Source: Candidatus Moraniibacteriota bacterium
GTDB lineage: Bacteria > Patescibacteriota > Minisyncoccia > Moranbacterales > UBA1568
Assembly (NCBI GenBank): GCA_963743885.1
Contig: CAVURJ010000001.1
Location: forward strand, 76,949 to 140,948
DNA length: 64,000 bases
Direction: 5' to 3'
This document shows positions 4,252 through 62,963 of the stretch, in pieces (within the stretch, counting starts at the first letter, position 1; each line of letters opens with the position of its first letter). A program made the translations under genes and the position numbers. The notes below the pieces were generated by a model that made no database searches, was not told the origin of the DNA, and worked only from the letters and a program-made list of their open reading frames with translations.

Positions 4252-4267
4252 ATGAGAAGCCATAGGG

Positions 4268-5305
4268 CTATTGCTGGAGCGCCTTAAGCCGGCGTCGCAG
4301 GCGGATGACGTACATGGTGAGACCGACAATAAGCGCGAAGTTAAGAAGCGCGGCTCCAATCACTCTCCAAGGCATCACCCAAAATGATACCTCCGCCTCA
4401 AGCTGGACATCACGAGTACCATCGTCGTAGGCCATGACCAGCTTGGCCGTATACTTGCCGAAACGGAGTTTGTGAGCCTGCGAGAAATCCCATTGGAGTT
4501 CAGAAATCGGCTGTCCATCCTCATCAAAGACGGTGCGATCGCCATCACGCTTTTCAATACGAAGCGGGAATCCATCCTCCCATTTAACCGAGTAGATACG
4601 GTTGGAATCAGGAAGAATATTCCCCATCCCCTCATTAACGTCCAAAAGAGCAACTTGTTTGTCTGTAGTAGAACTAATAAAAATATTGCCCCTCGGAGCC
4701 ACATGGACATTGCCAGAATTTCTCACCTTAACATTGAATGTTGTCGGGAGAAATTCATACCATGAACGATCGGTGGAAAACTCCGCAATCTGCGCCTCTC
4801 TTCTTGCATCCGGAGTCCTCACATCAAGCAAAACAAGAACTGCCGAACCGCCAGTAATAGCCGTCTGTCGTACTCCTGTTTTGACCTCTTCATCAGCCCT
4901 GGAAAATACGACTGCGTAGTAATAGCCAAATGAAGCGCTCTTGGGCGGATTGAGCGTCGTGGTAATCGTTTTCCATTCCTGTGGATCGATATTGAAAGCA
5001 TCCTCCGAGAAAGAAATCCACTTGATGAAATCATCGCTCGGCTCCGGATCCATGAGCTGCGGCTGGCCGTTTTCCTGGTATGCCTTAAACTTCATCAGGC
5101 TCGCCTTGATCCTTTCCGACTGACTGCCGCCATTCTTAATCTTGATTTGAGCAGATACTGGTGCTCCTGGCTCGGTAACGAGGCTGATTGGAAGCGGGGA
5201 CGTGACAAGATTCAAGCTACCATCAGATTGAGCAGAAGCAACCGGAATAGCAATCAAAAAACAGAGTACAATAAACAGTGAGCCAGAGAAGAGATGTTTG
5301 GTCAT
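4268..5305 (-). CDS. Secreted surface protein with C-terminal TM anchor, tandem duplicate copy 2
   Basis: 345 aa with signal peptide MTKHLFSGSLFIVLCFLIAIPVASAQS and C-terminal ...VIGAALLNFALIVGLTMYVIRLRRRLKALQQ. Its stop lies 16 bp from the start of copy 1. Confidence 0.6.
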   Translation of the reverse strand: MTKHLFSGSLFIVLCFLIAIPVASAQSDGSLNLVTSPLPISLVTEPGAPVSAQIKIKNGGSQSERIKASLMKFKAYQENGQPQLMDPEPSDDFIKWISFSEDAFNIDPQEWKTITTTLNPPKSASFGYYYAVVFSRADEEVKTGVRQTAITGGSAVLVLLDVRTPDARREAQIAEFSTDRSWYEFLPTTFNVKVRNSGNVHVAPRGNIFISSTTDKQVALLDVNEGMGNILPDSNRIYSVKWEDGFPLRIEKRDGDRTVFDEDGQPISELQWDFSQAHKLRFGKYTAKLVMAYDDGTRDVQLEAEVSFWVMPWRVIGAALLNFALIVGLTMYVIRLRRRLKALQQ

Positions 5306-20263: not shown

Positions 20264-22717
20264 CTAAAGGATCGTGAACGCTGCGACGCTATCACCAGCC
20301 TGCGGCTTCATCACGCGCACCCCCTGCGTCACGCGACCGAGAAGCGAGATGCTCTTAAACGGGATGCGGATGATCGTGCCCTTCTCGGAGGTGAGGATGA
20401 GATCGTCTTCGATATTCTCCATACTCGTGATGAGCGCACCGACGATATCACCGGTCTTATCGGTCACCTTCATCGCCTTGATGCCGGAGCCGCCGCGCTT
20501 CTGCGCCTTGAACTGACTGAGTTCACTGCGCTTGCCATAACCATGTCGCGAGAGCACGAGAAGCTCCATATCCTTGTCACCATCAGAGACGACATCCATC
20601 GCGACGATGCGATCCTTGTCATCCTTGAGCTTCATACCGCGCACACCGGCAGCGCTGCGACCCATCGGGCGAACATCGGATTCCTTGAAGCGGATGGACT
20701 GACCATCAGCGGTCGTCATCACGACTTCGTCCTGTCCGGTCGTCGGGCGAACCCAACCGAGCACGTCACCCTTCTCGAGTGAGATAGCGATGAGACCACT
20801 TCGGCGCACGTTCTCGAACTCTTCGATCTTGCTCTTCTTGACCGTACCCTTGGCCGTCGCCATGAAGAGATACTTGCAGCCGCCGTCCTTGAACGAGATG
20901 ACTGCCGTGATCTTCTCCTCCTGTGTCAGCTGGAGGAAATTGACGATCGCCTGGCCCTTCGCAGTGCGCGAAGACTCTGGGATCTCATATGCCTTAGTCT
21001 GGAAGACTTTGCCAGAATCAGTGAAGAACATGAGGTTGTCATGTGTCTCGATGGTGAGCACCTTGGCGATCTTGTCTTCTTCCTTGGTGGTCGCGCCGAT
21101 GACGCCCTTGCCGCCGCGCTTCTGCACGCGATAGACACCTGGGTTCATGCGCTTGATGTAACCGTCCTCGGTGAGCGTGATAATCGCTTCCTCGTTCGGA
21201 ATGAGATCCTCTTGCTTGAACTCGGAGATGCCGGTCTTCACGATGCGCGTGCGGCGATCATCGCCGAAACGGTCACGCACTTCGATGAGCTCGCTCTTCA
21301 CGAGCGCAAGGATCTTCTTGCGATGCTTGAGGAGGTCTTCGAGATACGCAATGAGCTTCAATTTTTCTTCGAGCTCGTCCTCAATCTTCTTGCGCTCGAG
21401 GCCAGCCAGTGTCTGGAGACGCATCTCGAGAATAGCGGTCGCCTGACGATCGGAGAGCTTGAACTTCTTCATGAGGTTCGCGTGGGCCTCTTCCTTGGTC
21501 GGAGACTTTTTGATGGTCTCGATGATCTGATCGATATGGTCGAGCGCGATCTTGAGACCTTCAAGGATATGCGCGCGGTCCTTGGCCTTCTGCAGGTCAT
21601 GCTCCGTACGACGCACGACGACAATCTCACGATGCTTGATATAGTGCTCGAGAATACTCTTGAGTGTGAGGATCTGTGGATCGGTGCCGTCGACGAGCGC
21701 GAGCATGTTGACGTTAAAGTTCTTCTGCAGGTCCGTCATCTGATAGAGCTGATTGAGCACCTTCTGCGGGAAGGCTTCCTTCTTGAGATCGACGACGATG
21801 CGCACGCCATCCTTGTCGGACTCATCGCGCAGGTCCTTGATGCCCACGATCTTCTCTTCCTTCACGAGCTCGGCGATCTTCATGATAAGCGACGCCTTGT
21901 TGGTCGCGTACGTCATCTCGGAAACGATGATCTGGAACATACCAGCCTTGGTCTCGACGATCTCCGCCTTGGCGCGCGTGACGATCGGGCCCTTGCCGGT
22001 CGCATAGGCCTCGCGGATATCCTTCTGGTTGTACATGATACCACCGGTCGGGAAGTCCGGACCTTTGACGAACTCCATCAGGTCATCGACGCTCGCTTCC
22101 GGATGATCGACGAGATGGCAAATACCATCCACGAGCTCATTGAGATTGTGCGGCGGAATATTGGTCGCCATACCGACCGCGATGCCCACGGTACCGTTCA
22201 AGAGGAGCTGTGGCAGCTTGGCTGGCAACACGACCGGTTCTTCATGTACGCCGTCGAAGTTCGGGATGAAATCCACGGTATCCTTCTCGATATCAATAAG
22301 CATCTCCTCAGCGATCGCCATGAGTTTAGCTTCGGTATAGCGATACGCTGCAGCGCTGTCACCGTCCATCGAGCCGAAGTTACCCTGGCCCCAGACGAGC
22401 GGATAGCGGAGCGAGAAGTCCTGCGCCATGCGGACCATGGTGTCATACACAGCCGAATCGCCGTGCGGATGGTACTTGCCGAGCACTTCGCCGACAACCG
22501 TCGCCGACTTGCGGAACTTCGACGTTGAGCGGAGCCCGGTCGACCACATGGAATACAGGATGCGACGATGCACCGGCTTCAAACCGTCGCGAACATCCGG
22601 CAGCGCGCGCGCCACGATGACCGACATCGCATAATCGAGATAGGATTGCTTCACTTCTTCCGCGATGCTCCGCGGCTCGATCTTCCCTTCATGGAATGCG
22701 CGCTTCTCTTCTGTCAT
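20264..22717 (-). CDS. gyrA: DNA gyrase subunit A
   Basis: 817 aa with active-site [11 protein letters not shown] and a C-terminal beta-pinwheel. Confidence 0.95.
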
Positions 22718-22739
22718 AGATTCGTCGTATATATCGAAA

Positions 22740-23102
22740 TTATCTCGGCTGCACGGCAGGAATGCCTTCCTGCAGACTCGTATCGCCTCTCGTTCTCATC
22801 TGGTCTCGGAAGAACTCTTCACCGGTCGTCTTCTCGCTACTGTCTACGCGGAGCGGCGACGCCTCCTTCAACATATCGCTCAAGGATGGGGCCGGAGTAG
22901 CGTTCGGAGCGAGCTCTCTCCCCTTCTCGATAGCCTGCGGCACATCGCGCGAAATCGAATGAAAATTCTCGCGAACCGACAACATCCAGATACCGATGAC
23001 AAAAAGCATCGAGACAGCGAGACAAGCAAGTGCGTAGCGCATGCGTACCGGCTCAGGCTGCCGCCGTACCTCTTCTATCTTCTCCCAGATATTAAGTGTC
23101 AT
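22740..23102 (-). CDS. Hypothetical small membrane protein
   Basis: Internal start [11 protein letters not shown] at 23102 and one TM helix ([19 protein letters not shown]). The ORF-track start at 23189 overlaps the MBL-fold gene. Confidence 0.3.
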
Positions 23103-23142
23103 AAGAAAAACTGAACGGCTAGGGTAGAAATTTAAACGACTG

Positions 23143-23802
23143 CTATGCTCCTCTCTCAAGCAGCACGACTTCGAGCGTCTTCTCCTCAAGATCCTTCTTC
23201 TTTATGTTGAGCCGCGGGAGCGATTCCTTCGGGCAGCTTCCAATGGCTTCGCAGAACGCCTTCTCTGTTTCAAGCGGGAGCGAGAGTCCAGCGATCTTAT
23301 AGTGCATCGGGATGACGATATTTGGCTCGATCTTCCGCACCATCTCGGCCGCGACCTTTGCAGAGAGCGTATCAGAACCACCAACCGGAATAAAAAGAAT
23401 GTCGACACCATTCAGCTTATCGAGCATCTCCGGTGAAAGATCATGGCCAAGAGCGCCGAGGAAGCAGATATGGATATCCTCGCTCTCGAAGATGAAGATC
23501 GTATTCTGACCTCGCTCCGCGCCATTCTGTTCATCACGAAACGACGAGAAACCAAGCGCTGCAATACCTTTCGCGGCATACTCACCGGGAGCGTCGAGCA
23601 CGACCGGCGATCCCTTGAGGGATTCCTTGGCCGAATCTGCATCGCCATGTGTCAGGAAAACGATATTCGCTTCGCCCTGCGGCGCGCGGAGACCAGCGCC
23701 CTTCTCGAGTGGATCAGTCCAGATGATGACATCATCGGTCGCACGACCAGCCGGCTTGGTGCTGATCTTGAAGCAATAATCGCCGTAGTACTGTATGTTC
23801 AT
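23143..23802 (-). CDS. MBL-fold metallo-hydrolase (UPF0173-like)
   Basis: 219 aa; NIVFLTHGDADS plus additional His/Asp ligands (DILFIPVGG, PMHYK) typical of the metallo-beta-lactamase fold. Confidence 0.55.
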   Translation of the reverse strand: MNIQYYGDYCFKISTKPAGRATDDVIIWTDPLEKGAGLRAPQGEANIVFLTHGDADSAKESLKGSPVVLDAPGEYAAKGIAALGFSSFRDEQNGAERGQNTIFIFESEDIHICFLGALGHDLSPEMLDKLNGVDILFIPVGGSDTLSAKVAAEMVRKIEPNIVIPMHYKIAGLSLPLETEKAFCEAIGSCPKESLPRLNIKKKDLEEKTLEVVLLERGA

Positions 23803-23977
23803 AGCGGGAGATAACCAAAGAGAGATAACACAGCCATTCTAACAGGAATGCGATGCCTTGTCGAGCATCATCAGACATCCATAAAACTGCTAGAGAGAGC
23901 CTGGGGATTGACTTTTTCCGATTCTCTGATACACTGGAAAAACATCACGTTTCTAATCCGGATCATATCATTTTCGT

Positions 23978-24118
23978 ATGCCAAAGAGGACATACCAGCC
24001 GAAGACCCGCAAGCGCGCCAGGCGCCATGGGTTTCTCGAGCGCATGAGCACCGTTGGCGGCCGCAAGGTCGTCGCTCGCCGCCGCGCCGCCGGTCGGAAG
24101 AAGCTGACCGTTGCCTAA
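23978..24118 (+). CDS. rpmH: 50S ribosomal protein L34
   Basis: 46 aa, manually translated: [46 protein letters not shown]. Below the ORF-track size cut-off. Confidence 0.85.
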
Positions 24119-24134
24119 GGAAAACGGCTGCATT

Positions 24135-24473
24135 ATGCTAAAAAAGGGCTTCCGTATCACGAAACAAGAGGATTTTGACAGGGTGTTTCGCAGCGGGAAG
24201 CCCCTTTTTTTTGGAGAGATCGGTTGCAAAGGATTCAAAAATGGGCTTGATCACATACGAATAGGCTTTTCTATAAGCAAAAAGCATGTTCCGCTCGCCG
24301 TCGATCGCAACCGGCTCCGTCGGATACTCTCCGAAGCCTTCGCTGCCGCATCGGCCGAATGGCCGGCATCGATGGATATCATCTTCTTTTCAGCCAAAAA
24401 AACAGCGCCAATCAGCCTTGATGAAGCAAAAATTATCATCAGCCAGATGCTCCACAAAGCCAATCGCGCATAA
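24135..24473 (+). CDS. rnpA: Ribonuclease P protein component
   Basis: Start MLKKGFRITKQEDFDRVFRSGK; basic RNR motif (VDRNRLRRILSEA). Canonically follows rpmH. Confidence 0.75.
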   Translation: MLKKGFRITKQEDFDRVFRSGKPLFFGEIGCKGFKNGLDHIRIGFSISKKHVPLAVDRNRLRRILSEAFAAASAEWPASMDIIFFSAKKTAPISLDEAKIIISQMLHKANRA

Positions 24474-24685
24474 GTAACCGTTCAAATTCTCACCGCCTAT
24501 TAAATAAGAAAAGAAATCATGCTTGTCTGATAAAATGTCCGGATTTCGGCTGAAAACCTTTCAAAGCTCGTCTGGTTATCTCGATAGCCTTCCTCGCTTC
24601 TTCAAAGTTTTCATCTCGAAATCCGAACATTTTCTCAAGACATGAGATTTTGAACGGTTACTAACAAACGAGAAAAACGCTTCTT

Positions 24686-25414
24686 ATGGGATATTTCTTC
24701 CACTCCTTCATTTACGAGCCGATCTACAACACGCTCGTCTACCTCTACGACACCGTTCCAGGCGGCGATTTCGGCATCGCCATCATCCTGACGACCATCC
24801 TCCTCAAGACCCTTTTCATCCCGCTTTCCAAGAAGCAGATTGAATCCCAGAAGAAGATGCAGGAGCTCCAGCCCAAGATCAAAGAGCTACAGCAGCGCTA
24901 CAAGAACGACAAAGAAAAGCAGACAAAGGCCATCATGGACCTTTACAAGGAGCATAAGGCCAACCCAGTTTCCGGCTGTCTGCCGCTCATTATCCAGCTC
25001 GTCTTCCTGATTGCTATCTATCAGGTCATCATCAATATCTCCCAGGCTGGCTTCCTCGCCAACCCAGCAGATCTCTACGCGTTCGTAGCGGATCCTGGAC
25101 AGATCAATCAGCTGTTCCTGCATTTCCTCGATCTCTCAAAGCCAAACTACGTCCTAGCCGTCTTTTCAGCCATAGCACAGTACTATCAGACCAAGATGAT
25201 CATGGGCCAGCAGGCGGCCAAGACTCCGAAGAACGACGCCCCTTCCGACCAGCCGGACTTTGCCGCTATAATGAATAAGCAGATGCTCTACCTCGGCCCT
25301 GGCATCACCCTCTTCATCGGTGCCACCTTCCCAGCCGCGCTCTCGCTCTACTGGCTCGTCTCGACCCTCTTCATGATCTTCCAGCAGATGTTCATCCTTA
25401 AGCCGAAAGCCTAA
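24686..25414 (+). CDS. yidC: Membrane protein insertase YidC (short form)
   Basis: 242 aa, 5 TM segments; the YidC/Oxa1 core LPLIIQLVFLIAIYQ and C-terminal YWLVSTLFMIFQQMF. Confidence 0.85.
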   Translation: MGYFFHSFIYEPIYNTLVYLYDTVPGGDFGIAIILTTILLKTLFIPLSKKQIESQKKMQELQPKIKELQQRYKNDKEKQTKAIMDLYKEHKANPVSGCLPLIIQLVFLIAIYQVIINISQAGFLANPADLYAFVADPGQINQLFLHFLDLSKPNYVLAVFSAIAQYYQTKMIMGQQAAKTPKNDAPSDQPDFAAIMNKQMLYLGPGITLFIGATFPAALSLYWLVSTLFMIFQQMFILKPKA

Positions 25415-25419
25415 CGCCT

Positions 25420-25908
25420 ATGGAAACTGCACACCAAGAAACCGTCAAAGGGATCGTCAATGACCTGATGGAGAAGATGGGTTTCACCGCCTCGGTGGAA
25501 GTCCGTCCGCTCGCCTCATCCGAGACGATTCTCTTCGCTATCCGCGTCGAAGGCGACCAGCATCTCCTGATCGGCCAGCATGGCGCCAATCTCGCCGCGC
25601 TCCAACACCTGGTCCGCGCTATCGTCCGCCAGAAGACCGGGGAACGACTCGATATCACTGTCGATGTCAACGACTACTTCGCAGAAAAAGCTGCGCTCCT
25701 CATGAAGGAAGCTGATAAAGTCGTCGCCGAAGTTCTCGAGAACCGCATCTCCGTCGCGCTCCGTCCGATGCTGCCGTATGAACGCAAGATCGTGCACTCG
25801 CACCTCGCCAAGCACGACGGCGTCACGACCGAAAGCATCGGAAACGGACCCGACCGCAAGGTTCTCGTCCGCCCGAAAGTTTCGGATACCGTTCCGGACG
25901 AAGCATAG
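25420..25908 (+). CDS. jag: Jag/KhpB-like RNA-binding protein (KH plus R3H)
   Basis: 162 aa; C-terminal R3H (LPYERKIVHSHLAKHDGVTTESIGNGPDRKVLVRP). Conserved yidC-jag pairing. Confidence 0.75.
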   Translation: METAHQETVKGIVNDLMEKMGFTASVEVRPLASSETILFAIRVEGDQHLLIGQHGANLAALQHLVRAIVRQKTGERLDITVDVNDYFAEKAALLMKEADKVVAEVLENRISVALRPMLPYERKIVHSHLAKHDGVTTESIGNGPDRKVLVRPKVSDTVPDEA

Positions 25909-41842: not shown

Positions 41843-42160
41843 CCGAGGTAGCTCAGTGGTAGAGCAGAGGACTGATTTTCGGTCACTCCTGTAGTAATAC
41901 AGGATGTATGCATCGGGTGAACTCGAGGAAACCTACGTTTCTAGCAATAGGAATATGGCAATCTCGATCCAAGCCTCAGTGGGATAAAGTTCTGAGGAAG
42001 GTGTAGAGACTAGCAGGTGAGCCCCAACAATAATCCTGCAACAGCGCCCGACTTCGCACTCCTTTCGAGGAACGAAGATGAAATAGTCCGATCCTTGGGG
42101 AAACCCAAGACAAATAAGAGGAAAATCCTTGTGTCGGCAGTTCAATCCTGCCCCTCGGCA
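41843..42160 (+). tRNA. tRNA-Phe (anticodon GAA) interrupted by a 246-nt group I intron in the anticodon loop
   Basis: 5' exon 41843..41874 (GCCGAGG acceptor, D-arm, GAGGA-CT) and 3' exon 42121..42160 (GAAAATCCTT...GGCAGTTCAATCCTGCC CCTCGGC A). The acceptor stem is perfectly complementary across 300 nt. The spliced loop reads CTGAAAA. Confidence 0.7.
41875..42120 (+). mobile_element. Group I intron in tRNA-Phe
   Basis: Internal guide GGTC pairs with exon GACU with a U.G at the splice site. P7-forming R/S-like elements are gtagagactagcagg and agatgaaatagtccgatcc. The intron ends in G (omega-G) at 42120. Confidence 0.6.
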
Positions 42161-42228: not shown

Positions 42229-42848
42229 CAAGAAGTTCATTTCAAATTGTGTTGCGGGTTGTGTAATTCAGCATGACAATTGTTGCAAACAAGCAGACAC
42301 TTGTTCACTTCTTCGTCAATATGGGATTGCTTCCGATTTGAAAGGGATCTCATATCGAGTTGAAAGCTTTTTTCTTTCGGATCAAGGTGATGGAAAGTCA
42401 GTGCGGCAAGGTTTTTGTTATAGCCGCAAACTGAACATTTCCCACCGAATCGTTTCAAAAGCGACATCTTTCTCTCCAAGCCCCTGGCTTGTTGGGATTG
42501 ATACGATTGATGAAGCTGATTCTTACAAAAGGGCGAGCAAAAGACTGTTTGTCTGCCAGACAATTCCTTGCTACACACGACACAAGTTATGAGTTTTTTC
42601 ATAACTTTATGATAACACAAAATGAATGGATCTAGCAGGGCTGCTTAGGAAGTAATTCCTAAGTGATACTCTGTCAAACTCGGGGAAATCTAAACGGTGA
42701 GCAGTTTCATCCGCATGACAATCCCGAGCCAAGCCTCATCCATCAGGTGAGGAAGGTGTAGAGACTAGACGGCAGACACCCGTAATTCGGGTGAAGGGAT
42801 AGTCCAGCTCACAAATTTGAAAGAAGTTGCGAAAGCAATAGTGAGAAG
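42229..42848 (+). mobile_element. Group I intron in tRNA(CAT) carrying an antisense HNH endonuclease ORF
   Basis: The 3' part (ccaagcctcatccatcaggtgaggaaggtgtagagactagacgg ... gggatagtccagctcac) is homologous to the tRNA-Phe intron core. The intron ends with G at 42848. The ORF 42237..42620 lies on the opposite strand. Confidence 0.6.
42237..42620 (-). CDS. HNH homing endonuclease (intron-encoded, antisense to host tRNA)
   Basis: 127 aa; CSVCGYNKNLAALTFHHLDPKEKSF ... LLVCNNCHAELHN is a classic HNH/zinc-finger motif. Low GC. Confidence 0.7.
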   Translation of the reverse strand: MCYHKVMKKLITCVVCSKELSGRQTVFCSPFCKNQLHQSYQSQQARGLERKMSLLKRFGGKCSVCGYNKNLAALTFHHLDPKEKSFQLDMRSLSNRKQSHIDEEVNKCLLVCNNCHAELHNPQHNLK

Positions 42849-44806: not shown

Positions 44807-45514
44807 ATGGGAATAAAATACAAAGTAAACGAGGACTTCTTCAAAAAATGGTCCCAGGAAATGGCTTATACGCTCGGATATATCTACGCCGACGGCAGCC
44901 TCGAGTACGCCCCTCGCCTCCGAGGAAGATACCTCCGCGTCTCTAGTGTGGAAAAAAGAAATATCGAGAAGATAAAAGAATGGATGGATTCAGAACATAC
45001 AATAATCACCAAGAAGCCAACGTCAAAGAACGGAAAGACTGGGTACTTGCTACGAATCGGGAGTCATAAGATCTATAACGATCTAACGAAACTGGGATTG
45101 TATCCAAATAAATCATTGACCGTGAAATTTCCCTCTATTCCTAAAGAATCTCTCTGCCACTTCGTTCGCGGATATTTCGATGGTGATGGCTGCGTCAGAC
45201 TATCGACAGCAAAGGGAGTCTTTCAGAAGCTCAGCACTGTATTTACAAGCGGAAGCAAAGCATTTTTACAAGATCTGGCTATCCAATTACACTCTGCCGC
45301 CAACACAAAACAGCTGAGTGTCTACAATGGCCATCGGTCTTATATGCTTTCCTATTCGACAAGTGATAGTATTAGGCTTTTTAAGTTTTTTTATGGAAAA
45401 GCGAAGATTCCTATCTTTTTGGAAAGAAAGGCCGCAATTTACGGCGAGTATTTCCAGCTGAAGCCAGAAAGGCTTGATAAAAAGGCAAAAAGTGTACTAC
45501 AATGCTTAAGTTAA
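44807..45514 (+). CDS. Free-standing LAGLIDADG homing endonuclease (two-motif, monomeric type)
   Basis: 235 aa; motif 1 MAYTLGYIYADGSLEY and motif 2 FVRGYFDGDGCVRLS about 110 aa apart. Low-GC, between a terminator and tRNA-Cys. Confidence 0.75.
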   Translation: MGIKYKVNEDFFKKWSQEMAYTLGYIYADGSLEYAPRLRGRYLRVSSVEKRNIEKIKEWMDSEHTIITKKPTSKNGKTGYLLRIGSHKIYNDLTKLGLYPNKSLTVKFPSIPKESLCHFVRGYFDGDGCVRLSTAKGVFQKLSTVFTSGSKAFLQDLAIQLHSAANTKQLSVYNGHRSYMLSYSTSDSIRLFKFFYGKAKIPIFLERKAAIYGEYFQLKPERLDKKAKSVLQCLS

Positions 45515-46517: not shown

Positions 46518-47495
46518 TTATGCGATAGCGAACCCCCGCTCCGTCTCTATGATACTACCAGGAATCTCAAAGCCACTCGCGAGACGATGTCCGCCGCCAC
46601 CAAACTGCGCTGCAATCGCCGACACATCCACACCGTGCTGCTCCATCGAACGCAAGCTCGCGCGCACGATGCCCCCATCACGTTCCGAGAGCACCATCGC
46701 GAACTTCGCATCCGGCACCGCCGAGAGAATAGACGCGACCTGATAGATATCATCCACCGATGCCTGGGCATCCTCGACATCCCTCTTTGTCACCGCCGTC
46801 ACAAGCATACCATTCTCCGGATTGAGCTTCGCCTTCTCAAATGCCTTCCCCCACAACTTGAGGGCTGCGATATTCTGATGTGCGAAAATCGTCTGCGAAA
46901 TCTTGGTGAGCGGCGCGCCGCGTTTCATGAGATCCGATGCGATCTCCATCACGCGCGGCGACAGACTCCCATGCTGGAAGCCGCCGGTATCGAAGATGAT
47001 CCCCATGAGGAGCTTCGTCGCCATCGACTTCGAGATGTTCGCATCGACTGAACGAAGGAAAAGATAGACGAGTTCGGAGCTCGACGAGTACGCGGTATCG
47101 ATCACGATCACATCACCGCGCACCGATATGTCGGGATGATGATCGATGAGCACAATCGCCTGATCCTCAGAGAATCGTCCGACGATCGTATCAAATCCCC
47201 TATCGACACTATCGCATGCGATCACGGCATCGTAGCTCGCGAGATCGAGCTGGTCAGGATGAAAGAATGTTTCCTTCGCAAGCGATGAGATCACATCCGG
47301 AAACGGATCAAGACAGGCGACATCAGCATGTTTGCCACTCAACCGAATATATTCCGCCAGCGCAGTATTCGATCCGACCGCATCAGGGTCTGGCCGATTA
47401 TGCGCCACAAGGAGTACGCGCTCGGATTTCGAGATGATGTATTCAATGGTGCGAAACTCTTTCTCGAAACTCTGCATACGTATCGGATACTTCAA
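46518..47495 (-). CDS. nrnA: DHH-family phosphoesterase (NrnA-like oligoribonuclease / pAp phosphatase)
   Basis: 325 aa; VAHNRPDPDAVGS (DHH motif I), DHHP, and C-terminal DHHA1 GGGGH. Confidence 0.75.
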   Translation of the reverse strand: MKYPIRMQSFEKEFRTIEYIISKSERVLLVAHNRPDPDAVGSNTALAEYIRLSGKHADVACLDPFPDVISSLAKETFFHPDQLDLASYDAVIACDSVDRGFDTIVGRFSEDQAIVLIDHHPDISVRGDVIVIDTAYSSSSELVYLFLRSVDANISKSMATKLLMGIIFDTGGFQHGSLSPRVMEIASDLMKRGAPLTKISQTIFAHQNIAALKLWGKAFEKAKLNPENGMLVTAVTKRDVEDAQASVDDIYQVASILSAVPDAKFAMVLSERDGGIVRASLRSMEQHGVDVSAIAAQFGGGGHRLASGFEIPGSIIETERGFAIA

Positions 47496-47827
47496 AATAT
47501 TTCTTTGAGAAGCTTCTCGACTTTATCAGCCTCTTCTTCGGTCCGATCGATCTCAAAAGAGAGCTTTGGCATCGGCCGCATGTAGAGCTTACTGTAAAGC
47601 TTCCTCTGGATTCCAGGAAGTTCCTTCTTGAGCGTCTCAGTAACATAGTGGATTTCTGTCTCAGGGAAAACACTGACGAACATACGAGTGTAGCGGAGAT
47701 CCTTCGATGTGTCAACCTTCGCGATCGTCGCAAAGACGCCCGGCTTGAAGGAAAGCTCCTTTTCCATGATTTCCGCCAGATGTTTGCGGATCAGCTCATT
47801 GACCTTGGTGACGCGGAGTGATGACAT
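47492..47827 (-). CDS. rbfA: Ribosome-binding factor A
   Basis: 111 aa; RVTKVNELIRKHLAEIM and KH-like fold motifs. Confidence 0.8.
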   Translation of the reverse strand: MSSLRVTKVNELIRKHLAEIMEKELSFKPGVFATIAKVDTSKDLRYTRMFVSVFPETEIHYVTETLKKELPGIQRKLYSKLYMRPMPKLSFEIDRTEEEADKVEKLLKEIF

Positions 47828-48375: not shown

Positions 48376-49050
48376 CTACATGAGTAGCATTTTAGCAATG
48401 TGTTTTAATTCAAGATCAATAGAAGAAGAAAAGTAGTCAACGCGACATACGCCTCTGTAATCGGCTTTTCTTGACTTTTTACCAATGGTTCTCTTATCAA
48501 TCCTTGCTTTGTAAAACTGACTGCGAGAGACGGCTGTAATTTTAGACCAAATATTCTCTAAAGATTCTACGTCTTGATCTGCTCTGCATTGAACCGTAAT
48601 TCTGAACTTTGACTCATCAATCTCATAACATTCTCGCATAAGGCGCATAAAAAGTCCAATGATGGATGGGTCTGAGTTACCAAACATAAGGGCTCCCCTT
48701 GGTGATTTGGAGCCTTCTGCTAGATAGAGAACTGCCAATGTAATTTTTCGGGAATCTTTGCTGGTTTTAAAAAAATTAATAAGCGAATTATTTTGTGAAT
48801 TAAGTTTTTCTACTAGAACTAAACGGTCCTCTTTTTTCTTTTCTAGAGCCATAATTCTAGATTTTTCAAGATGAAGTTTATTCATATTCTTCATCTTCAA
48901 ATAGTATTCTTCTGGCAGTTTAACCTTACTGCACCAGCTAGAAAGCGTGCTTTTTGAAATAATAACACCTAAAATATCACTAATCTCACTATATGTTCTC
49001 CCTTGCGAACGGAGATGCTGAGCTCTAATTTTGATGGAATATAATTTCAT
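48376..49050 (-). CDS. HTH-domain protein with a degenerate single LAGLIDADG-like motif (possible inactivated homing endonuclease or DNA-binding protein), in an AT-rich island
   Basis: 224 aa. N-terminal helix-turn-helix is RTYSEISDILGVIISKSTLSSW. Central KITLAVLYLAEGSKSPRGALMFGNSDPSIIGLF follows the LAG-x-x-D-G-D-G-S-x pattern with Glu in place of Asp. About 33% GC, directly upstream of the parS array. Confidence 0.3.
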   Translation of the reverse strand: MKLYSIKIRAQHLRSQGRTYSEISDILGVIISKSTLSSWCSKVKLPEEYYLKMKNMNKLHLEKSRIMALEKKKEDRLVLVEKLNSQNNSLINFFKTSKDSRKITLAVLYLAEGSKSPRGALMFGNSDPSIIGLFMRLMRECYEIDESKFRITVQCRADQDVESLENIWSKITAVSRSQFYKARIDKRTIGKKSRKADYRGVCRVDYFSSSIDLELKHIAKMLLM

Positions 49051-49139: not shown

Positions 49140-50350
49140 TGTTCCACGTGGAACAATTCCGATACTAGTCACCCTATCAGAACAATCCAGAATATCTTTT
49201 AAACGATACTTTCCTACTTGAAAGTAAAAATCATGCCATTAGGCTAATCTGTAAGCCAAAAATACGCACGGTCCAGCCCGCGTCATCACAATGTTCCACG
49301 TGGAACATATTACACTCCATAATAATTAATCATCTGTTCCACGTGGAACATTCAAAAAAACCAGTAGCGGATAACAATGAGACAACGAGATTGTTCCACG
49401 TGGAACAATTTAAAAAAATACCTCCGTATCTACGTGACAGCAAAAAATTAGCGTATCGATGTTCCACGTGAAACATACTCATATATACAGACTTGTTCCA
49501 CGTGGAACAAAATACCCACTATGAACAATCATGGGTCTTGAGGATCCTTAAAAGATAAGCGATTGCTATGGAGCCACAGAAAGCATATTCTAAAACATCC
49601 TATGTTCCACGTGGAACATACATCAAAAAAACAGCCAGCCTGAAATATCCCTTATCCTCGTTTTCAAATATACTTTCCTTTCAAAAAGTCTAAAAATACT
49701 GTTTTTTGGCTTATGATAGGTACGTAAGACACAAAAATACTAGTTGTTCCACGTGGAACATGCCAAAATTCCATACCAATGTTCCACGTGGAACATTTTT
49801 AAAAAAACGATATCCTTGAGGCGTCTCACAATGTTCCACGTGGAACATATGTGTTTTTTGAAAAACAGTCTCAAAACGATCCATCCCATACAAAGGTTCG
49901 CCAGAACAGCTGCGCCTCTACTTATCGCGATACATTGTTCCACGTGGAACAATGTATCATTACAATACATGGATAAGGGAAAGATGTTCCACGTGGAACA
50001 TATCTACCGAATACCCACTCCATGAACATTAAAAATTATCCTTTTGCCAGAACTTTCTTCTTTGAAAGTTAGAAATTTGTATATTTTGGCTTATATTAAA
50101 TATTTATGTTAATAATGTTCCACGTGGAACATGCTAACACAATCAAATCTTATCGTGCTTGAAACATATTTTAAAAAATGTTCCACGTGGAACATTTAAA
50201 CAAGTCACCAAAAGATCGGGTATTTCGCCAGGGGATTATGTTCCACGTGGAACATAGCCATCATTATTAAAAACTCAAATATACAAATATCCTATATATC
50301 ATACTAATAATTGACAGAATGGACTGCTGTAAAATGTTCCACGTGGAACA
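49140..50350. repeat. parS: Array of 16 parS-type 16-bp palindromes TGTTCCACGTGGAACA (one copy TGTTCCACGTGAAACA) with irregular 34-152 bp spacing in AT-rich noncoding DNA
   Basis: Core starts: 49140, 49292, 49335, 49392, 49460 (gtgAaaca variant), 49494, 49603, 49745, 49780, 49832, 49935 (a 26-bp perfect palindrome tacattgttccacgtggaacaatgta), 49985, 50116, 50179, 50239, 50335. Most are flanked to give the 18-bp ATGTTCCACGTGGAACAT or TTGTTCCACGTGGAACAA. The sequence is one or two symmetric changes from the canonical Firmicute/ParB parS TGTTNCACGTGAAACA. Confidence 0.85.
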
Positions 50351-50384
50351 TCTTATATCACTTTTTCTCTACATTATTGACATA

Positions 50385-50413
50385 TATACTATATTGTAGT
50401 ATAATAATGCTCT
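50385..50413 (+). promoter_or_regulatory. Perfect consensus sigma70 promoter (TTGACA - 17 bp - TATAAT)
   Basis: ttgaca at 50385..50390, 17-bp spacer, tataat at 50408..50413. Confidence 0.6.
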
Positions 50414-50419
50414 GTCTAC

Positions 50420-50815
50420 TATATACATGCTACCAAGATGATTTTCATTATTAACAAACGCTGGCCATCTGCGAGTTCTACGCGAGCTTAACAAAAGACA
50501 CTGAGCCCCAACACAAGCCTTGGATCTAATCCCTCTCCGCCTCTGGCAGAGAGTATTGACCAGATTTTACCTACGCTCCTCCGCCAGCTGGCGGACGGAA
50601 ACGAGAGTAAAATCTTGTTTCGCTCGCTTTGCTCGATAATTAAAAGACGGTGCTGGGCAGGTGCTTATCGAAAGGGGCTCGTGTCTTTCTACTACATCCG
50701 ATCAGCAGCGAGCTCCCTACGTCTCGACTTCGCAGCCCTCGTTATTGTGGCACGCCTAGCCAATGTATTCGATATCATCCTCTTGGGCCTAATACACAAG
50801 GCTCGGTTTTTTTAA
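50420..50815 (+). ncRNA. Candidate roughly 400-nt structured noncoding transcript (identity unknown) between the consensus promoter and a T7 run
   Basis: Higher GC than the AT-rich surroundings and multiple internal helices (cagattttac...gtaaaatcttg; ccgccagctggcgg). It ends ggctcggttttttt at 50808..50815. Only weak ORFs (66 and 72 aa) lie within it. The downstream gene has its own TTGATA-17-TATACT promoter at 50877..50905. Confidence 0.35.
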
Positions 50816-50933: not shown

Positions 50934-51926
50934 ATGAGCCGTAATGTTTCTTCTAGTACTGTCGGATCCGATGCGCGAGTGTCCCTTTTTGTATTTTCCA
51001 GCCTGCTTGTTTTTAGTGCAGTTTTTTTTATTTTTTCCGGAAGCGCTTCCGGGACATCAAATATTTTCCAAGATACCGACCAGGACGGCTTGAGCAACGA
51101 TGAAGAGAAGCTCTATGGGACCGACCCGAACAATCGGGACAGCGATAATGATGGGTATGGGGATGGAGTAGAAGTAGAAAGCGGATACGACCCTCTCAAG
51201 AAAGCCCCTGGAGATAAAATTACCCAAGAAGAATCGACCACTGCTACCATCTCACCAGCTGCTACCAATGATACTGCTACGTTGACTGACCGGGTGTCGA
51301 GCGAAATTGCTGCGGCGTTAAAGTCATCGGAAAGCGCCGAAGAACCGCTCACTATGGAACAGCTTAGCTCGTCTGTTCAGGAAATTCTCAGTGAAAACAC
51401 TCAGGAAATTACGTTGCCGGATATCGATGCCAGTACCATAAAAATCAAGAAGGTTTCAAAAAAACTTTCCGAAAAAAAACGCGAGGAGCAAGAGCGTGAA
51501 GATATCCTCGAGTATCTCACCGTGATGTCATATCTCGTTGCGAATAATTCACCAAAAGCATTCCACGAGGAAAGCGAGCTTGAGGATCTCGCTTCATCAA
51601 TATCAAGCGAATCGCTGACCGCACTGACCACTGGCAACCTATCCTACATCAATCAGCTCGCTGAAAAAGGAGAGAAGATTCTCAACGAAACGCGTGACAT
51701 CGAAGTGCCTGAAACAATGCTTGATACGCACGTCAAAGCTCTTAGGATTGCAACTTATGCCGTCAACCTCAAAGACTCGTCAGCATCGGTGCAAAACGAT
51801 CCTCTCGGGCAAATAGCGCTACTCTCAAAAACACAAGGACTGATCGGTGCCGCTTCATCACTTGGAGAAGAAATCCAGGGAAGGCTCTCAGGATACGGAA
51901 TCAAGAATATCCCAATCAGCCTCTGA
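50934..51926 (+). CDS. Membrane-anchored/secreted acidic protein with thrombospondin type-3-like Ca-binding repeats
   Basis: 330 aa; N-terminal TM (LFVFSSLLVFSAVFFIF), then DTDQDGLSNDEEKLYGTDPNNRDSDNDGYGDGVE (D-x-D-x-D-G repeats), then an acidic helical region. Confidence 0.45.
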   Translation: MSRNVSSSTVGSDARVSLFVFSSLLVFSAVFFIFSGSASGTSNIFQDTDQDGLSNDEEKLYGTDPNNRDSDNDGYGDGVEVESGYDPLKKAPGDKITQEESTTATISPAATNDTATLTDRVSSEIAAALKSSESAEEPLTMEQLSSSVQEILSENTQEITLPDIDASTIKIKKVSKKLSEKKREEQEREDILEYLTVMSYLVANNSPKAFHEESELEDLASSISSESLTALTTGNLSYINQLAEKGEKILNETRDIEVPETMLDTHVKALRIATYAVNLKDSSASVQNDPLGQIALLSKTQGLIGAASSLGEEIQGRLSGYGIKNIPISL

Positions 51927-59734: not shown

Positions 59735-59795
59735 AATTATCCACTTATACACCGGTTATTCACTATTCCCCAGTATCTAGAGGCTCGTTCAGTTA
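59735..59795 (+). promoter_or_regulatory. DnaA boxes in the dnaA upstream region
   Basis: ttatccact (59741..59749) and ttatccacc (59783..59791), 8/9 and 7/9 matches to TTATCCACA, plus the weaker ttattcact, within 70 bp of the dnaA start. Confidence 0.5.
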
Positions 59796-59811
59796 TCCAC
59801 CACGTGCTATA

Positions 59812-61260
59812 ATGGCTCGTACTGCTGATATTTTCCCTCACCTTATGCTGACAAGCGATGAACTTTGGAAGGCTGTCTTGGGCCAAATAGAACTTTCTTT
59901 ATCGAAAGCCAATTTTATAACCTGGTTTAAGAACACTCGGATCCTTAGTAGCCAAAACGGCCTCGTCACTATTGGCGTGCCGAATGGCTTCGCAAAAGAA
60001 TGGCTTGAAAACAAGTACAACCTCTATATATTGAAGGCGCTCAAAAGCCTCGACCCAAGCGTCACTGAGATGCGTTGTGTTATATCGCAGGAACGGCCGA
60101 ATATCCCAACAATTGATTCGGTCAAGACCGCGTCCGTGTCGTCACAACCATCAGAGGCCCAAGGATTCGTCAGGAAAAAGATCATCGAAAAGCCCGCTTT
60201 CGGCGCGCAAACCACATCCGAACCAGTATTCCATGAGACAAACCTCAACAGCCGATACACATTTGAAAACTTCATCGTTGCTGAGAACAACGAACTCGCA
60301 CGAGCGGCCTGCTACGCCGTCTCACAAAACCTCGGCATGGCCTATAACCCACTCTTCATCTATGGTGGTGTAGGGCTTGGCAAAACCCACCTCCTCCAAT
60401 CCATCGGCAATGAGGTGATGAGAAACGCGCCTGAAAAGCGCATCAAATACATCAACTCTGAACGATTCACCACTGAACTCGTCGATTCCATCAAGAACCA
60501 GAAGATTGATAAATTCAAAGAATACTACCAACAGATGGACCTCCTCATTATTGATGATGTCCAATTTCTCGCCGGCAGAGAGAAAACTCAGAATGAGTTC
60601 TTCCATATCTTCAATGCGCTCTACCAACTCAATAAACAGATCGTGATATCGAGCGACCGGCCCCCAAAAGCCATTCCAACACTCGAGGAGCGTCTTCGGT
60701 CGCGTTTTGAGGGAGGTATGATCACTGATATTAGTCGGCCAAATATTGAAACGCGTATCGCTATACTTGAGGCTAAGATAAGCGAAAAATCAGCTCATCT
60801 TGATGATGCATCCATTCGTTACATCGCTGAGCACATCTCACAAAACATCCGTGAACTTGAAGGAGCCCTCAACCGAGTCATCGCCTTCTGTGAATTCCAC
60901 AAAGTCTCTCCCTCCCTCGAAAATACCCAGAAAGTCCTCTCTCAACTCATTGAAACGAATAAAAAAACCATCAAGCTGGATGATATCTTCTCAGCCATTA
61001 TTGAGTTTTATAACGTATCAAAAGAAGACCTCTTAAAGAAAGGCCGGAAAAAAGAAGTCTCCCACCCTCGACAGGTGATGATGTATCTCCTCCGAAAGGA
61101 ACTCGACATGCCATTTTCTACGATTGGCGATACCCTTGGGGGACGTGATCATACCACTGCCCTTCATGCATATGAGAAAGTGAATAAACAACAAGTGGAT
61201 AATGAGCGACTCCAAGAAGAACTCCTTACCTTAAAAGAGAAGCTCTACTACCAATCCTGA
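59812..61260 (+). CDS. dnaA: Chromosomal replication initiator DnaA
   Basis: 482 aa; Walker A GGVGLGKTHLLQ, AAA+ sensor motifs, and C-terminal DNA-binding helix DHTTALHAYEKV. Confidence 0.95.
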   Translation: MARTADIFPHLMLTSDELWKAVLGQIELSLSKANFITWFKNTRILSSQNGLVTIGVPNGFAKEWLENKYNLYILKALKSLDPSVTEMRCVISQERPNIPTIDSVKTASVSSQPSEAQGFVRKKIIEKPAFGAQTTSEPVFHETNLNSRYTFENFIVAENNELARAACYAVSQNLGMAYNPLFIYGGVGLGKTHLLQSIGNEVMRNAPEKRIKYINSERFTTELVDSIKNQKIDKFKEYYQQMDLLIIDDVQFLAGREKTQNEFFHIFNALYQLNKQIVISSDRPPKAIPTLEERLRSRFEGGMITDISRPNIETRIAILEAKISEKSAHLDDASIRYIAEHISQNIRELEGALNRVIAFCEFHKVSPSLENTQKVLSQLIETNKKTIKLDDIFSAIIEFYNVSKEDLLKKGRKKEVSHPRQVMMYLLRKELDMPFSTIGDTLGGRDHTTALHAYEKVNKQQVDNERLQEELLTLKEKLYYQS

Positions 61261-61519
61261 TACAAACTCTGTTAATAACCCTGTATAACCAACGATATCC
61301 GCTGGATAAGAGTGTTGATAAACTAAACACTCTTGTGAGTAACTCTCCTCTCCTTGATTATTTTATGAGTTATACGAATATCCCTCTGAGATATCCTGAT
61401 TATAAAAATACATCTACTCTAAAAAATACCCTTTATTTAAAACAAAAATAAGAATTATCCCCATATCCACATCACTAAGTAATAATAATTCTTATTTAAA
61501 TATATAATACTTATATCTT
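61261..61519. promoter_or_regulatory. oriC: Candidate oriC: AT-rich dnaA-dnaN spacer with DnaA boxes and a DNA-unwinding-element-like AT tract
   Basis: ttatccagc (reverse complement of gctggataa, 61301 region), atatccacat and ttatcccca (about 61455..61475), then about 60 bp of more than 85% AT (aataataattcttatttaaatatataatacttatatctt) adjacent to dnaN. Confidence 0.45.
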
Positions 61520-62665
61520 ATGAAACTCATCTGTACACAAGAGAACCTCAACCGAGCAATATCATACCTTGAACGAGTTACAGGAAAACAGACAAACCTT
61601 CCTATTCTTGGAAATTTCCTTCTTGAGACAGAAAAGGGGAGATTGAAGATATCAGCGACAAATCTCGAGATTGGGGTTGTGGTGTATATTGGGGCAAAGA
61701 TCGAGCGTGAAGGAAGAATAGCAGTTCCTTCGCGGGTATTGGCAAATTTTATCCATAATCTTCCAAGTGGGGATGTAGTGGATATTGAGGTTTCTGGGCA
61801 GGTGATGAAAATAGTGAGTGCAGCGCATCAAGTGAATATTAAAGGTGTGGATGGAAAGGATTTTCCGATTATCCCACAATATAAAGAGGAGTATCCATTT
61901 GCGTTACCAGCCCAAGAATTAAAAGAAGCGCTTTCAAGGCTTTTATTTTGTGTTAGCTTAAATGAATCTCGGCTTGAGCTTACTGGGGTGAATATTTTTT
62001 TCTTTGAAGATGCTCTCCACCTCGCAGCGACAGATAGTTTTAGGCTTGCAGAGGAGATTATTCCACTTAAAGAGTCGAGCGTTGGATATCAGGATTTTAT
62101 TAAGGGGAATCCATCGCTTATTATTCCAAGTAATACCCTCCAAGAGGTGGTAAGGGTTATTACTCAGGAAAATAGCGAGGTGAAGATGGCACTTAAGGAG
62201 AATCAGGTATTTTTTGAAATAGATGGGGTCCAGATTATCTCGCGGAGTATTAATGGGAAATACCCTGATTATAAGCAGATTATCCCACAATCCTTTATAT
62301 TAAGATGTACTTTAGGGAGGGATGATCTTCAACGGGCGATCCGGATTGCAAGCGCATTCTCATCGTATGATACAAATGAGGTGACGCTTGTATTTGATCC
62401 GAAGCGTAGTGAGTGTTCCGTGGCGTCTATTTCGCGCGAAGTCGGGGAGAATAAGACGGTGCTTAAGTGTGAGTTTATATCTGGGAATGACCCATTAACG
62501 ATCGTCTTTAATCCGCGCTATGTCGCAGATGGCTTGAATGCCTGCTCGAGTGGTGTGGTGATGTTTTTAGCGAATACAGGGACGACGCCAGCAGCGCTTC
62601 GGATGATGGATAATGAGAGGGAAAAAGAAGGGTATCTTTATATTATGATGCCGATCAGGAAATGA
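61520..62665 (+). CDS. dnaN: DNA polymerase III beta sliding clamp
   Basis: 381 aa, three-domain clamp; typical position after dnaA. Confidence 0.9.
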   Translation: MKLICTQENLNRAISYLERVTGKQTNLPILGNFLLETEKGRLKISATNLEIGVVVYIGAKIEREGRIAVPSRVLANFIHNLPSGDVVDIEVSGQVMKIVSAAHQVNIKGVDGKDFPIIPQYKEEYPFALPAQELKEALSRLLFCVSLNESRLELTGVNIFFFEDALHLAATDSFRLAEEIIPLKESSVGYQDFIKGNPSLIIPSNTLQEVVRVITQENSEVKMALKENQVFFEIDGVQIISRSINGKYPDYKQIIPQSFILRCTLGRDDLQRAIRIASAFSSYDTNEVTLVFDPKRSECSVASISREVGENKTVLKCEFISGNDPLTIVFNPRYVADGLNACSSGVVMFLANTGTTPAALRMMDNEREKEGYLYIMMPIRK

Positions 62666-62669
62666 TGTT

Positions 62670-62963
62670 ATGAAGACTCTTAGGGATCTGCTACCAAAAA
62701 GAGAATCAAAGCGTGTCCCAGAGATGTTGGATGAGAAGACGATATTCCATATCTGCCGGAAAGTCCTCCTTGAGGAATATGGTGTGCGTGGAAGTGAGAA
62801 TATCATCCCTTCGCTCTATAAAGACAAGCGTCTTTTCCTCTCCCCGCGGAGCTCGCTTTGGGGGAATGAGATATCGCTTGAGCGTGAAGCACTGAGGAAT
62901 AAGATGAACGCGGTCATCGGGAGCGAAGCGGTGGATGGTATTGTGGTGTCGAAGCGGGGGTGA
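62670..62963 (+). CDS. DUF721 (RemB/YaaB-like) small protein
   Basis: 97 aa; same length and hydrophobic-pattern register as Bacillus YaaB (W in the second half, KLN..IG near the C-terminus), and located after dnaN where DUF721 genes commonly sit. Confidence 0.4.
   Translation: MKTLRDLLPKRESKRVPEMLDEKTIFHICRKVLLEEYGVRGSENIIPSLYKDKRLFLSPRSSLWGNEISLEREALRNKMNAVIGSEAVDGIVVSKRG

Follow-up and report, generated by a model that had tools for sequence, protein, structure and literature searches.

Introduction

The centromere of the F plasmid, sopC, consists of 12 near-identical repeats of 43 bp, which are arranged head to tail beside sopAB and have a plasmid-specific sequence. On the chromosome of Bacillus subtilis, most parS sites lie within coding sequences, one of them in spo0J. 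The parS sets of B. subtilis, Caulobacter crescentus, Corynebacterium glutamicum and Streptomyces comprise 4–24 sites over 10–400 kb, with 10 sites in 35 kb in C. glutamicum (PMC7083940, PMC5815017), and Myxococcus xanthus has 22–24 parS sites in ~3 kb that were shown to bind ParB and to act as a centromere (PMC3899335). Here we describe an array of sixteen parS sites in a 64,000-nt stretch of the genome of a Candidatus Moraniibacteriota bacterium (hereafter the window; position 1 is its first letter), which we predict with considerable confidence to be the chromosomal ParB-loading centromere of this genome.

The array resembles the M. xanthus cluster in that many near-identical 16-bp parS sites with irregular spacers are packed into a few kb near oriC, and the two consensus sequences are nearly the same (TGTTCCACGTGGAACG versus ...ACA). 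In contrast to M. xanthus, where the cluster has ~7 sites per kb and parAB is located 4 kb away in a genome of 9 Mb, the window array has 13 sites per kb, no parAB was found across at least 60 kb in one direction and ~15 kb in the other, and the genome is that of a Candidate Phyla Radiation (CPR) bacterium of ~0.65 Mb or more; the sites of its clade, moreover, typically lie in frame within an open reading frame (ORF) for a membrane protein. With the four origin-proximal sets named above the array shares the 16-bp consensus, the location close to the origin and the presumed loading of ParB and SMC, but its 16 sites occupy 1.2 kb and no others are in view. Like sopC, it would act as one centromere made of about a dozen palindromic binding sites for ParB-family proteins in ~0.5–1 kb. 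Its spacers, however, are unrelated and irregular with no head-to-tail units, its consensus is the chromosomal one, and it stands in a housekeeping context with neither a mobile replicon nor adjacent partition genes.

Dense chromosomal parS clusters are thus already known, and the window array is of the Myxococcus type, separated from parAB. A scan of one genome per species gave at least 120 places, spread over many phyla, where three parS sites lie close together, and arrays of 8–11 sites were among them; in view of these and of the M. xanthus cluster (22 in 3 kb), the claim of a first-pass annotation of this DNA that nothing but plasmid or phage centromeres matches such a density is too strong. 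The density of the window array is nevertheless the highest in our sample and exceeds that of any described cluster that we found. Its most unusual feature, above all, is the clade-wide embedding of the sites in frame within a WaaL-like ORF. Full-text literature searches combining parS or ParB with CPR clade names or O-antigen ligase returned nothing relevant on such arrays, and no study of chromosome segregation in CPR/Patescibacteria was found there. Other arrays that we came across include one of 10 parS sites at a strict 55-bp period and one of 8 at 64 bp in metagenome-assembled genomes (MAGs) of uncultured Bacilli, nine irregularly spaced sites in a gammaproteobacterial MAG, and eight sites of TGTTTCACGTGAAACA in a 661-kb Paceibacterota chromosome.

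A dense parS array near the probable replication origin

Sixteen matches to TGTTCCACGTGGAACA, 15 of them exact and one with a single mismatch, lie at positions 49140–50350 (Table 1), where 0.02 matches would be expected by chance and none of 100 shuffles reached 16. No further match was found in the 64 kb, even when up to three mismatches were allowed. The deviating site, TGTTCCACGTGAAACA, differs by one G-to-A change and still fits the parS consensus TGTTNCACGTGNAACA. The palindrome extends to 18 bp at 14 of the 16 sites and to 20 bp at seven. Consecutive sites start 34–152 nt apart, leaving true spacers of 18–136 nt. Self-comparison of the array gave parS-centred matches only, with no higher-order repeat and no sign of recent amplification; the spacers are mutually unrelated, apart from one 34-nt motif that occurs three times. 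The G+C content is 0.366 in the array and 0.331 in its spacers, compared with 0.514 in the window. Since each frame contains 16–30 stop codons across the array and the longest open stretch is 100 codons, the array is noncoding in the window, which also accounts for its low G+C content. These measurements bear out the first-pass annotation, which had described a single cluster of sixteen consensus-grade sites in noncoding AT-rich DNA, most of them 18-bp palindromes, with irregular and non-identical spacers; only its spacer lengths need correction, as the 34–152 bp given there are start-to-start distances.

The array is close to the probable origin of replication. Pfam searches identified dnaA at 59812–61260 and dnaN at 61520–62665, the cumulative GC skew reaches its minimum at ~61 kb, and half of the DnaA-box-like sites in the window (7 of 14) fall within the probable oriC region. 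The last parS site is 9.46 kb from the start of dnaA, in agreement with the ~10 kb and the origin-proximal placement first proposed, and the array is ~11 kb from the GC-skew switch, so that the origin probably lies ~11 kb away.

The array keeps its position in relatives

Named homologues of the TSP3-repeat protein encoded to the right of the array come almost exclusively from Candidatus Moraniibacteriota/Moranbacteria within the Patescibacteria/CPR. Loci of relatives were taken as the DNA around the TSP3 gene in independent assemblies. In all five (L140, L141, L142, L144 and L146) an array of 6–17 sites occupies the same slot, with rbfA/tRNA genes on one side and the TSP3 gene on the other, which answers in the affirmative whether the array is syntenic in related genomes. 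The conserved gene order is pseudouridine synthase, L19, UDG, DHH, rbfA, array, TSP3, a gene of unknown function, ftsH, tilS, gmk and S1. The exact 16-mer is present in 78 of the 79 sites of the window and these relatives, and the TSP3 protein beside the array is only ~50–56% identical among them.

The tRNA flanks of the window are ~92% identical to those of L140, its closest relative, yet hardly any of the spacer sequence aligns, which rules out both recent acquisition and a collapsed or chimeric assembly, a concern raised at the outset; the independent assemblies likewise have unrelated spacers. That the sites are conserved amid spacers that hardly align shows that purifying selection acts on nothing but the palindromes. 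In the species-genome collection, a contig from Moraniibacteriota (L077) ends inside an array; another contig (L147) begins inside one, and arrays of this kind probably break short-read assemblies.

The surroundings of dnaA differ among these genomes. S1 is followed by dnaA-dnaN in the window and in L140, and by lactamase_B and gyrA in L141, L142, L144 and L146. In the window, lactamase_B and gyrA are found 35 kb away, at 20–24 kb, adjoining yidC-jag (compared stretch 20264–25908). This indicates that the origin region has been rearranged within the clade and that the distance between array and dnaA differs by lineage.

Homologous arrays lie in frame within a WaaL-like gene

Gene callers predict an array-spanning ORF of 425–583 aa in L141, L144 and L146. 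It translates into a polytopic membrane protein, with the palindrome (usually ATGTTCCACGTGGAACAT) read in all three frames, as MFHVEH, NVPRGT or CSTWN. A distant Parcubacteria locus (L014) has 10 sites in a homologue with 35% identity (E = 1e-62), and this homologue scores above the Pfam threshold for Wzy_C/O-antigen ligase. In the AlphaFold model of another family member, P0143 (pTM 0.73), 14 of 14 parS-coded peptides are located in low-confidence loops between confident helices, and among solved structures the model is matched best by 7TPG, a WaaL O-antigen ligase (E = 1.9e-4, probability 1.0). The array ORF of the relatives has the fold and the domain of the WaaL/Wzy_C family (PF04932; PDB 7TPG), of which we know no described member with parS arrays in its loop-coding regions; the window differs in that the ORF itself is gone.

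A protein search yielded 407 homologues, and parS peptides, up to 18 per protein, were present in 120 of the 120 homologues listed; this search was biased to motif carriers, as its candidates were gathered by shared 5-mers that included the parS peptides. A metagenome survey was instead seeded without parS, using the patterns WQ[FY]QP[VI]HN and FNEY..., and 80 loci (L148–L227, 947 kb) were kept. Sites were found inside the host gene in all 80, with 3–17 per locus; the gene sequence, 145 kb in all, contained 703 sites (4.9 per kb), and the 802 kb of flanking DNA contained 10 (0.012 per kb). In 79 of the loci, all sites or all but one lie in one open frame, the median length of which is 587 codons. 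Modules of three sites are repeated verbatim within a gene in relatives. Some of the parS-coded peptides share homologous alignment columns in members that are only 38–79% identical, indicating that those sites are old.

In the window, masked tblastn found no remnant of the host ORF, and a motif-masked family hidden Markov model (HMM) had no hit in the arrays of the window, L140 and L142 (E > 0.2), while the L146 control scored 592 bits. A WaaL-like pseudogene in the window was rejected on these two results. The site counts of the window and of L140, which both lack the ORF, are at the high end of the observed range. The lineages of the window, L140 and L142 have lost the ORF and retained the sites. 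The noncoding description given initially holds for the window; the arrays of the relatives in which the WaaL-like gene is intact are in frame within it.

Selection acts on the DNA palindrome

The codons that encode the palindrome peptides were compared, in 76 unique ORFs, with the expectation from the codon usage of those same ORFs. FHVE was encoded by the parS nucleotides in 96.7% of 209 occurrences (expected 1.1%), VPRGT in 99.5% of 214 (expected 0.36%) and CSTWN in 97.4% of 156 (expected 0.25%). Encoding by parS nucleotides so far above the codon expectation shows that the constraint is on the DNA palindrome, and the host protein merely tolerates the palindrome-coded peptides in its loops. 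As the ORF was lost in the window and the sites were kept, it is apparently the sites and not the protein that selection retains.

The array as a predicted chromosomal centromere

The array has the canonical parS sequence, is unique within 64 kb, is origin-proximal, occupies the same slot across the clade and is under strong selection at the DNA level. Clusters of the identical 16-mer lie beside soj-spo0J in seven loci from Planctomycetota, Bacillota, Acidobacteriota and Proteobacteria, and the M. xanthus consensus, which is one base away from the 16-mer of the window, binds ParB in vitro (PMC3899335). Since this canonical sequence is used beside soj-spo0J elsewhere, the best explanation is a chromosomal centromere; a dedicated centromere had also been proposed in the first-pass annotation, and the same syntenic position in relatives strengthens that reading.

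According to established ParABS biology, each 16-bp palindrome would be a loading site at which a ParB dimer binds, closes as a clamp dependent on cytidine triphosphate and slides off. As the sites are at least 18 nt apart, all of them could be occupied at once, and 16 sites in 1.2 kb would nucleate one large ParB complex ~10 kb from oriC. Such a complex would label the origin region for segregation, and SMC would probably be loaded there too, by analogy with SMC loading at parS in B. subtilis and C. glutamicum (PMC7083940). As to its history, the array may descend from parS sites in the loop-coding parts of a WaaL/Wzy_C-like gene, the ORF of which would have decayed beyond recognition in the lineage of the window with the sites kept, the gene remaining intact in most relatives.

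Several points weigh against a centromere. The centromere reading assumes that this organism has a ParB. Neither parA nor parB turned up in the window, in ~11 kb beyond it or in 1.19 Mb around homologous arrays: tblastn of the window with Spo0J and Soj sequences gave one chance hit inside a polysaccharide flippase, Pfam detected neither ParA nor ParB among 50 window ORFs, the gene list showed none in the ~11 kb beyond dnaN, and profile HMMs derived from other phyla (49 ParB and 36 ParA sequences) matched nothing in the window or in the 1.19 Mb of related Patescibacteria DNA. This extends to the whole window the original remark that neither gene lies within 10 kb of the array. The searches did not reach the other ~580 kb of the 652,564-bp contig, so that the negative result is no proof that ParB is missing. 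In most other phyla, the parS triplet adjoins parAB. Most of the densest arrays in the species-genome sample likewise lack parAB in the stretch examined (L014, L039, L041, L073, L114, L012 and L051), the exception being L025, where soj-spo0J directly adjoins eight sites. Furthermore, dnaA was not within 10 kb of the array in any relative except L140, so that proximity to the origin is demonstrated for the lineage of the window only. Finally, the need for 16 sites is unexplained, given that a single parS suffices for function in C. glutamicum (PMC7083940).

If the prediction of a centromere is correct, the locus would provide a precise, clade-wide and sequence-defined centromere for a large fraction of uncultured bacteria. 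The array would mark the origin-proximal region in fragmented assemblies and may explain why short-read assemblies break at this spot, while the natural series of 3–18 sites lends itself to asking why some bacteria need many parS. Sites read in three frames within an intact membrane-protein gene are a striking overlap of constraint at the DNA level and at the protein level, and they offer a testable lead on the coupling of centromere and membrane.

A bolder version, which we regard as rather unlikely, is that in Paceibacteria-type Patescibacteria the centromere is itself a WaaL/Wzy_C-like ORF with 3–18 in-frame parS sites in its loops, kept as both ORF and ParB array since before the lineages split; the dual coding may then be functional, and the window would represent an end state in which the ORF is dead and the centromere kept. 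Through its co-translational membrane insertion (transertion), the protein could anchor the ParB-bound origin region at the membrane of these very small cells; another possibility is that ParB, by occupying the sites, could control expression of the envelope gene. In a more radical variant, these genomes would lack a canonical ParB and another protein would have taken over the palindrome.

Alternative explanations

Binding of the palindromes by a protein other than ParB, with no role in segregation, is distinctly unlikely, although no ParB was found near any array. Such a protein might be Noc-like, a transcription factor titrated by an operator bank, or the adjacent 224-aa protein with a helix-turn-helix (HTH), the gene for which (48376–49050, minus strand) starts 90 nt from the first site. 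Homologues of this gene directly and divergently adjoin the parS-bearing gene in 6 of the 80 metagenomic loci, and a perfect sigma-70-type promoter follows 26 nt downstream of the last site. However, the sequence is exactly the canonical parS that other phyla have next to parAB, L140 and most loci lack the HTH protein, and the gene for its Kaiserbacteria homologue adjoins a tRNA cluster, with no parS less than 10 kb away. Noc sites are built on another core (ATTTCCCGGGAAAT), and instead of forming a cluster they are scattered over the chromosome away from the terminus. The core of the window sites is CACGTG and not CCCGGG, and they occupy one locus only, so that the initial suggestion of a Noc-like nucleoid occlusion anchor was abandoned in favour of canonical parS.

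The 224-aa ORF has a weak N-terminal HTH (HTH_23), a conserved LYLxEG motif and a weak resemblance to I-DmoI/LAGLIDADG, with no significant similarity to the LAGLIDADG_3 protein of the window. Its family is uncharacterised and comprises at least 322 clusters in Patescibacteria. As a dedicated partner of the array it was rejected, because it appears to track tRNA genes and has no parS beside it in Kaiserbacteria; judging by this distribution and its sequence, it is perhaps a relative of homing endonucleases. In the Kaiserbacteria tRNA cluster (L228:8900–10000), the arrangement is odd: further tRNA-like sequences and recurring G+C-rich inserts apparently split the tRNA-like halves or are nested with them.

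A selfish or structural repeat without a centromere role is highly improbable, whether it is thought of as mRNA or DNA hairpins, as an element like a miniature inverted-repeat transposable element (MITE), as a guide array of the tandem interspersed guide RNA (TIGR) or clustered regularly interspaced short palindromic repeats (CRISPR) type, or as an assembly artefact. The verbatim duplication of three-site modules in the gene of relatives and the scoring of the palindromes as terminator-like hairpins would fit a repeat, and TIGR arrays are known in CPR bacteria (PMC12045711). Yet there are no copies elsewhere in the 64 kb and only 10 in the 802 kb of relatives' flanks, the spacers are irregular (18–136 nt) and unrelated, unlike the 36-nt dual-repeat units of TIGR or those of CRISPR, and JGI, NCBI, ENA and Logan assemblies each give arrays with unique spacers. 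The irregular architecture, the lack of an Rfam match and the absence of tas and cas genes from the window led us to reject a TIGR, CRISPR or noncoding RNA array.

We give next to no credence to the option, first suggested in the annotation, that the array serves an integrated or episomal element as its centromere, be it a plasmid, a phage-plasmid or an island, with parAB outside the window: the region is AT-rich (G+C 0.37 versus 0.51), tRNA genes and a possible homing-endonuclease-like ORF adjoin it, and viral contigs bear chromosomal-type parS clusters of 3–8 sites, but the low G+C content is accounted for by the noncoding region, the same housekeeping flanks (UDG, DHH, rbfA on one side; TSP3, ftsH, tilS, gmk, S1 on the other) recur in conserved order in every relative examined, the array is present in 80 of 80 host-gene loci surveyed, no integrase, replication or partition gene is nearby, and similarity to known plasmids or phages is limited to tRNA. 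A plasmid or phage origin was rejected on this tRNA-only similarity, the viral contigs with parS clusters being unrelated. These are 17 putative viral contigs from IMG/VR (L121–L137) with 3–8 sites of the chromosomal type (e.g. L135:6137–6460), of which only L122 has a ParB gene in the stretches examined.

Further features of the window

Table 1. Coordinates of the parS array, its flanking genes and the arrays used for comparison. Plain numbers refer to the 64,000-nt window; prefixed numbers refer to the locus named.
Feature	Position	Strand	Remarks
parS array	49140..50350		16 palindromic sites, AT-rich, noncoding; 1,211 bp
parS 1	49140..49155		exact TGTTCCACGTGGAACA; 20-bp palindrome
parS 2	49292..49307		exact
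parS 3	49335..49350		exact; 16-bp palindrome only
parS 4	49392..49407		exact
parS 5	49460..49475		variant TGTTCCACGTGAAACA
parS 6	49494..49509		exact; 18 nt past site 5
parS 7	49603..49618		exact
parS 8	49745..49760		exact; 16-bp palindrome only
parS 9	49780..49795		exact
parS 10	49832..49847		exact
parS 11	49936..49951		exact
parS 12	49985..50000		exact
parS 13	50116..50131		exact
parS 14	50179..50194		exact
parS 15	50239..50254		exact
parS 16	50335..50350		exact; -35 hexamer of a consensus promoter begins 26 nt downstream
rbfA	47492..47827	-	left syntenic anchor of the array in relatives
TSP3-repeat secreted/membrane protein gene	50934..51926	+	right syntenic anchor
Probable oriC region	59737..61757	+	dnaA, flanking DnaA-box-like sites, GC-skew minimum
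Array of L140			JGI contig; DnaN in the 90% cluster of the window; 15 sites
Array of L141; array-spanning ORF	L141:8472-9749		766,823-bp NCBI MAG contig; 17 sites
Array of L142			NCBI MAG; 6 sites
Array of L144; array-spanning ORF	L144:8326-9870		ENA; 12 sites
Array of L146; array-spanning ORF	L146:7916-9667		NCBI MAG; 13 sites
Array-spanning ORF of L014	L014:6843-7994	-
Dense array outside Moraniibacteriota	L041:5384-5894		no parAB within 8 kb examined
Dense array outside Moraniibacteriota	L073:3560-4023		no parAB within 8 kb examined
Dense array outside Moraniibacteriota	L114:7232-7956		no parAB within 8 kb examined
Dense array outside Moraniibacteriota	L039:1473-1906		no parAB within 8 kb examined

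The promoter that follows the last parS site (50377–50405, plus strand) has the perfect arrangement TTGACA-17-TATAAT. Downstream of it are a G+C-rich stretch that folds well (z = -2.97 for 50412–50700) and a terminator-like hairpin with a T run at 50783–50806. The stretch 50377–50815 matches no Rfam family and lacks conservation even in L140, the closest relative; it could represent either a lineage-specific RNA (~400 nt) or a leader for the TSP3 operon.

Within a tRNA cluster (Leu, Val, Gly, Cys, Leu), group I intron matches of 57 and 63 bits were found at 41865–42110 and 42622–42829 (plus strand), and these could point to intron-bearing tRNA genes missed by ARAGORN. A weak HNH-like ORF (42237–42620) and a LAGLIDADG_3 ORF (44807–45514) are located nearby. 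Farther to the left, the ORFs 3208–4359 and 4268–5305 (minus strand) form a tandem duplication encoding near-identical secreted or membrane-anchored proteins of ~345 aa; they sit among about eight ORFs (~1.4–11 kb) that lack Pfam matches and encode signal peptides or regions rich in Thr/Ser.

Directly after dnaN, a 97-aa ORF (62670–62963, plus strand) gives a sub-threshold match to DciA (E = 2.4e-4; 21.7 bits against a cut-off of 24). This ORF is kept behind dnaN in the two closest relatives, with 97 aa in L139 and 90 aa in L138.

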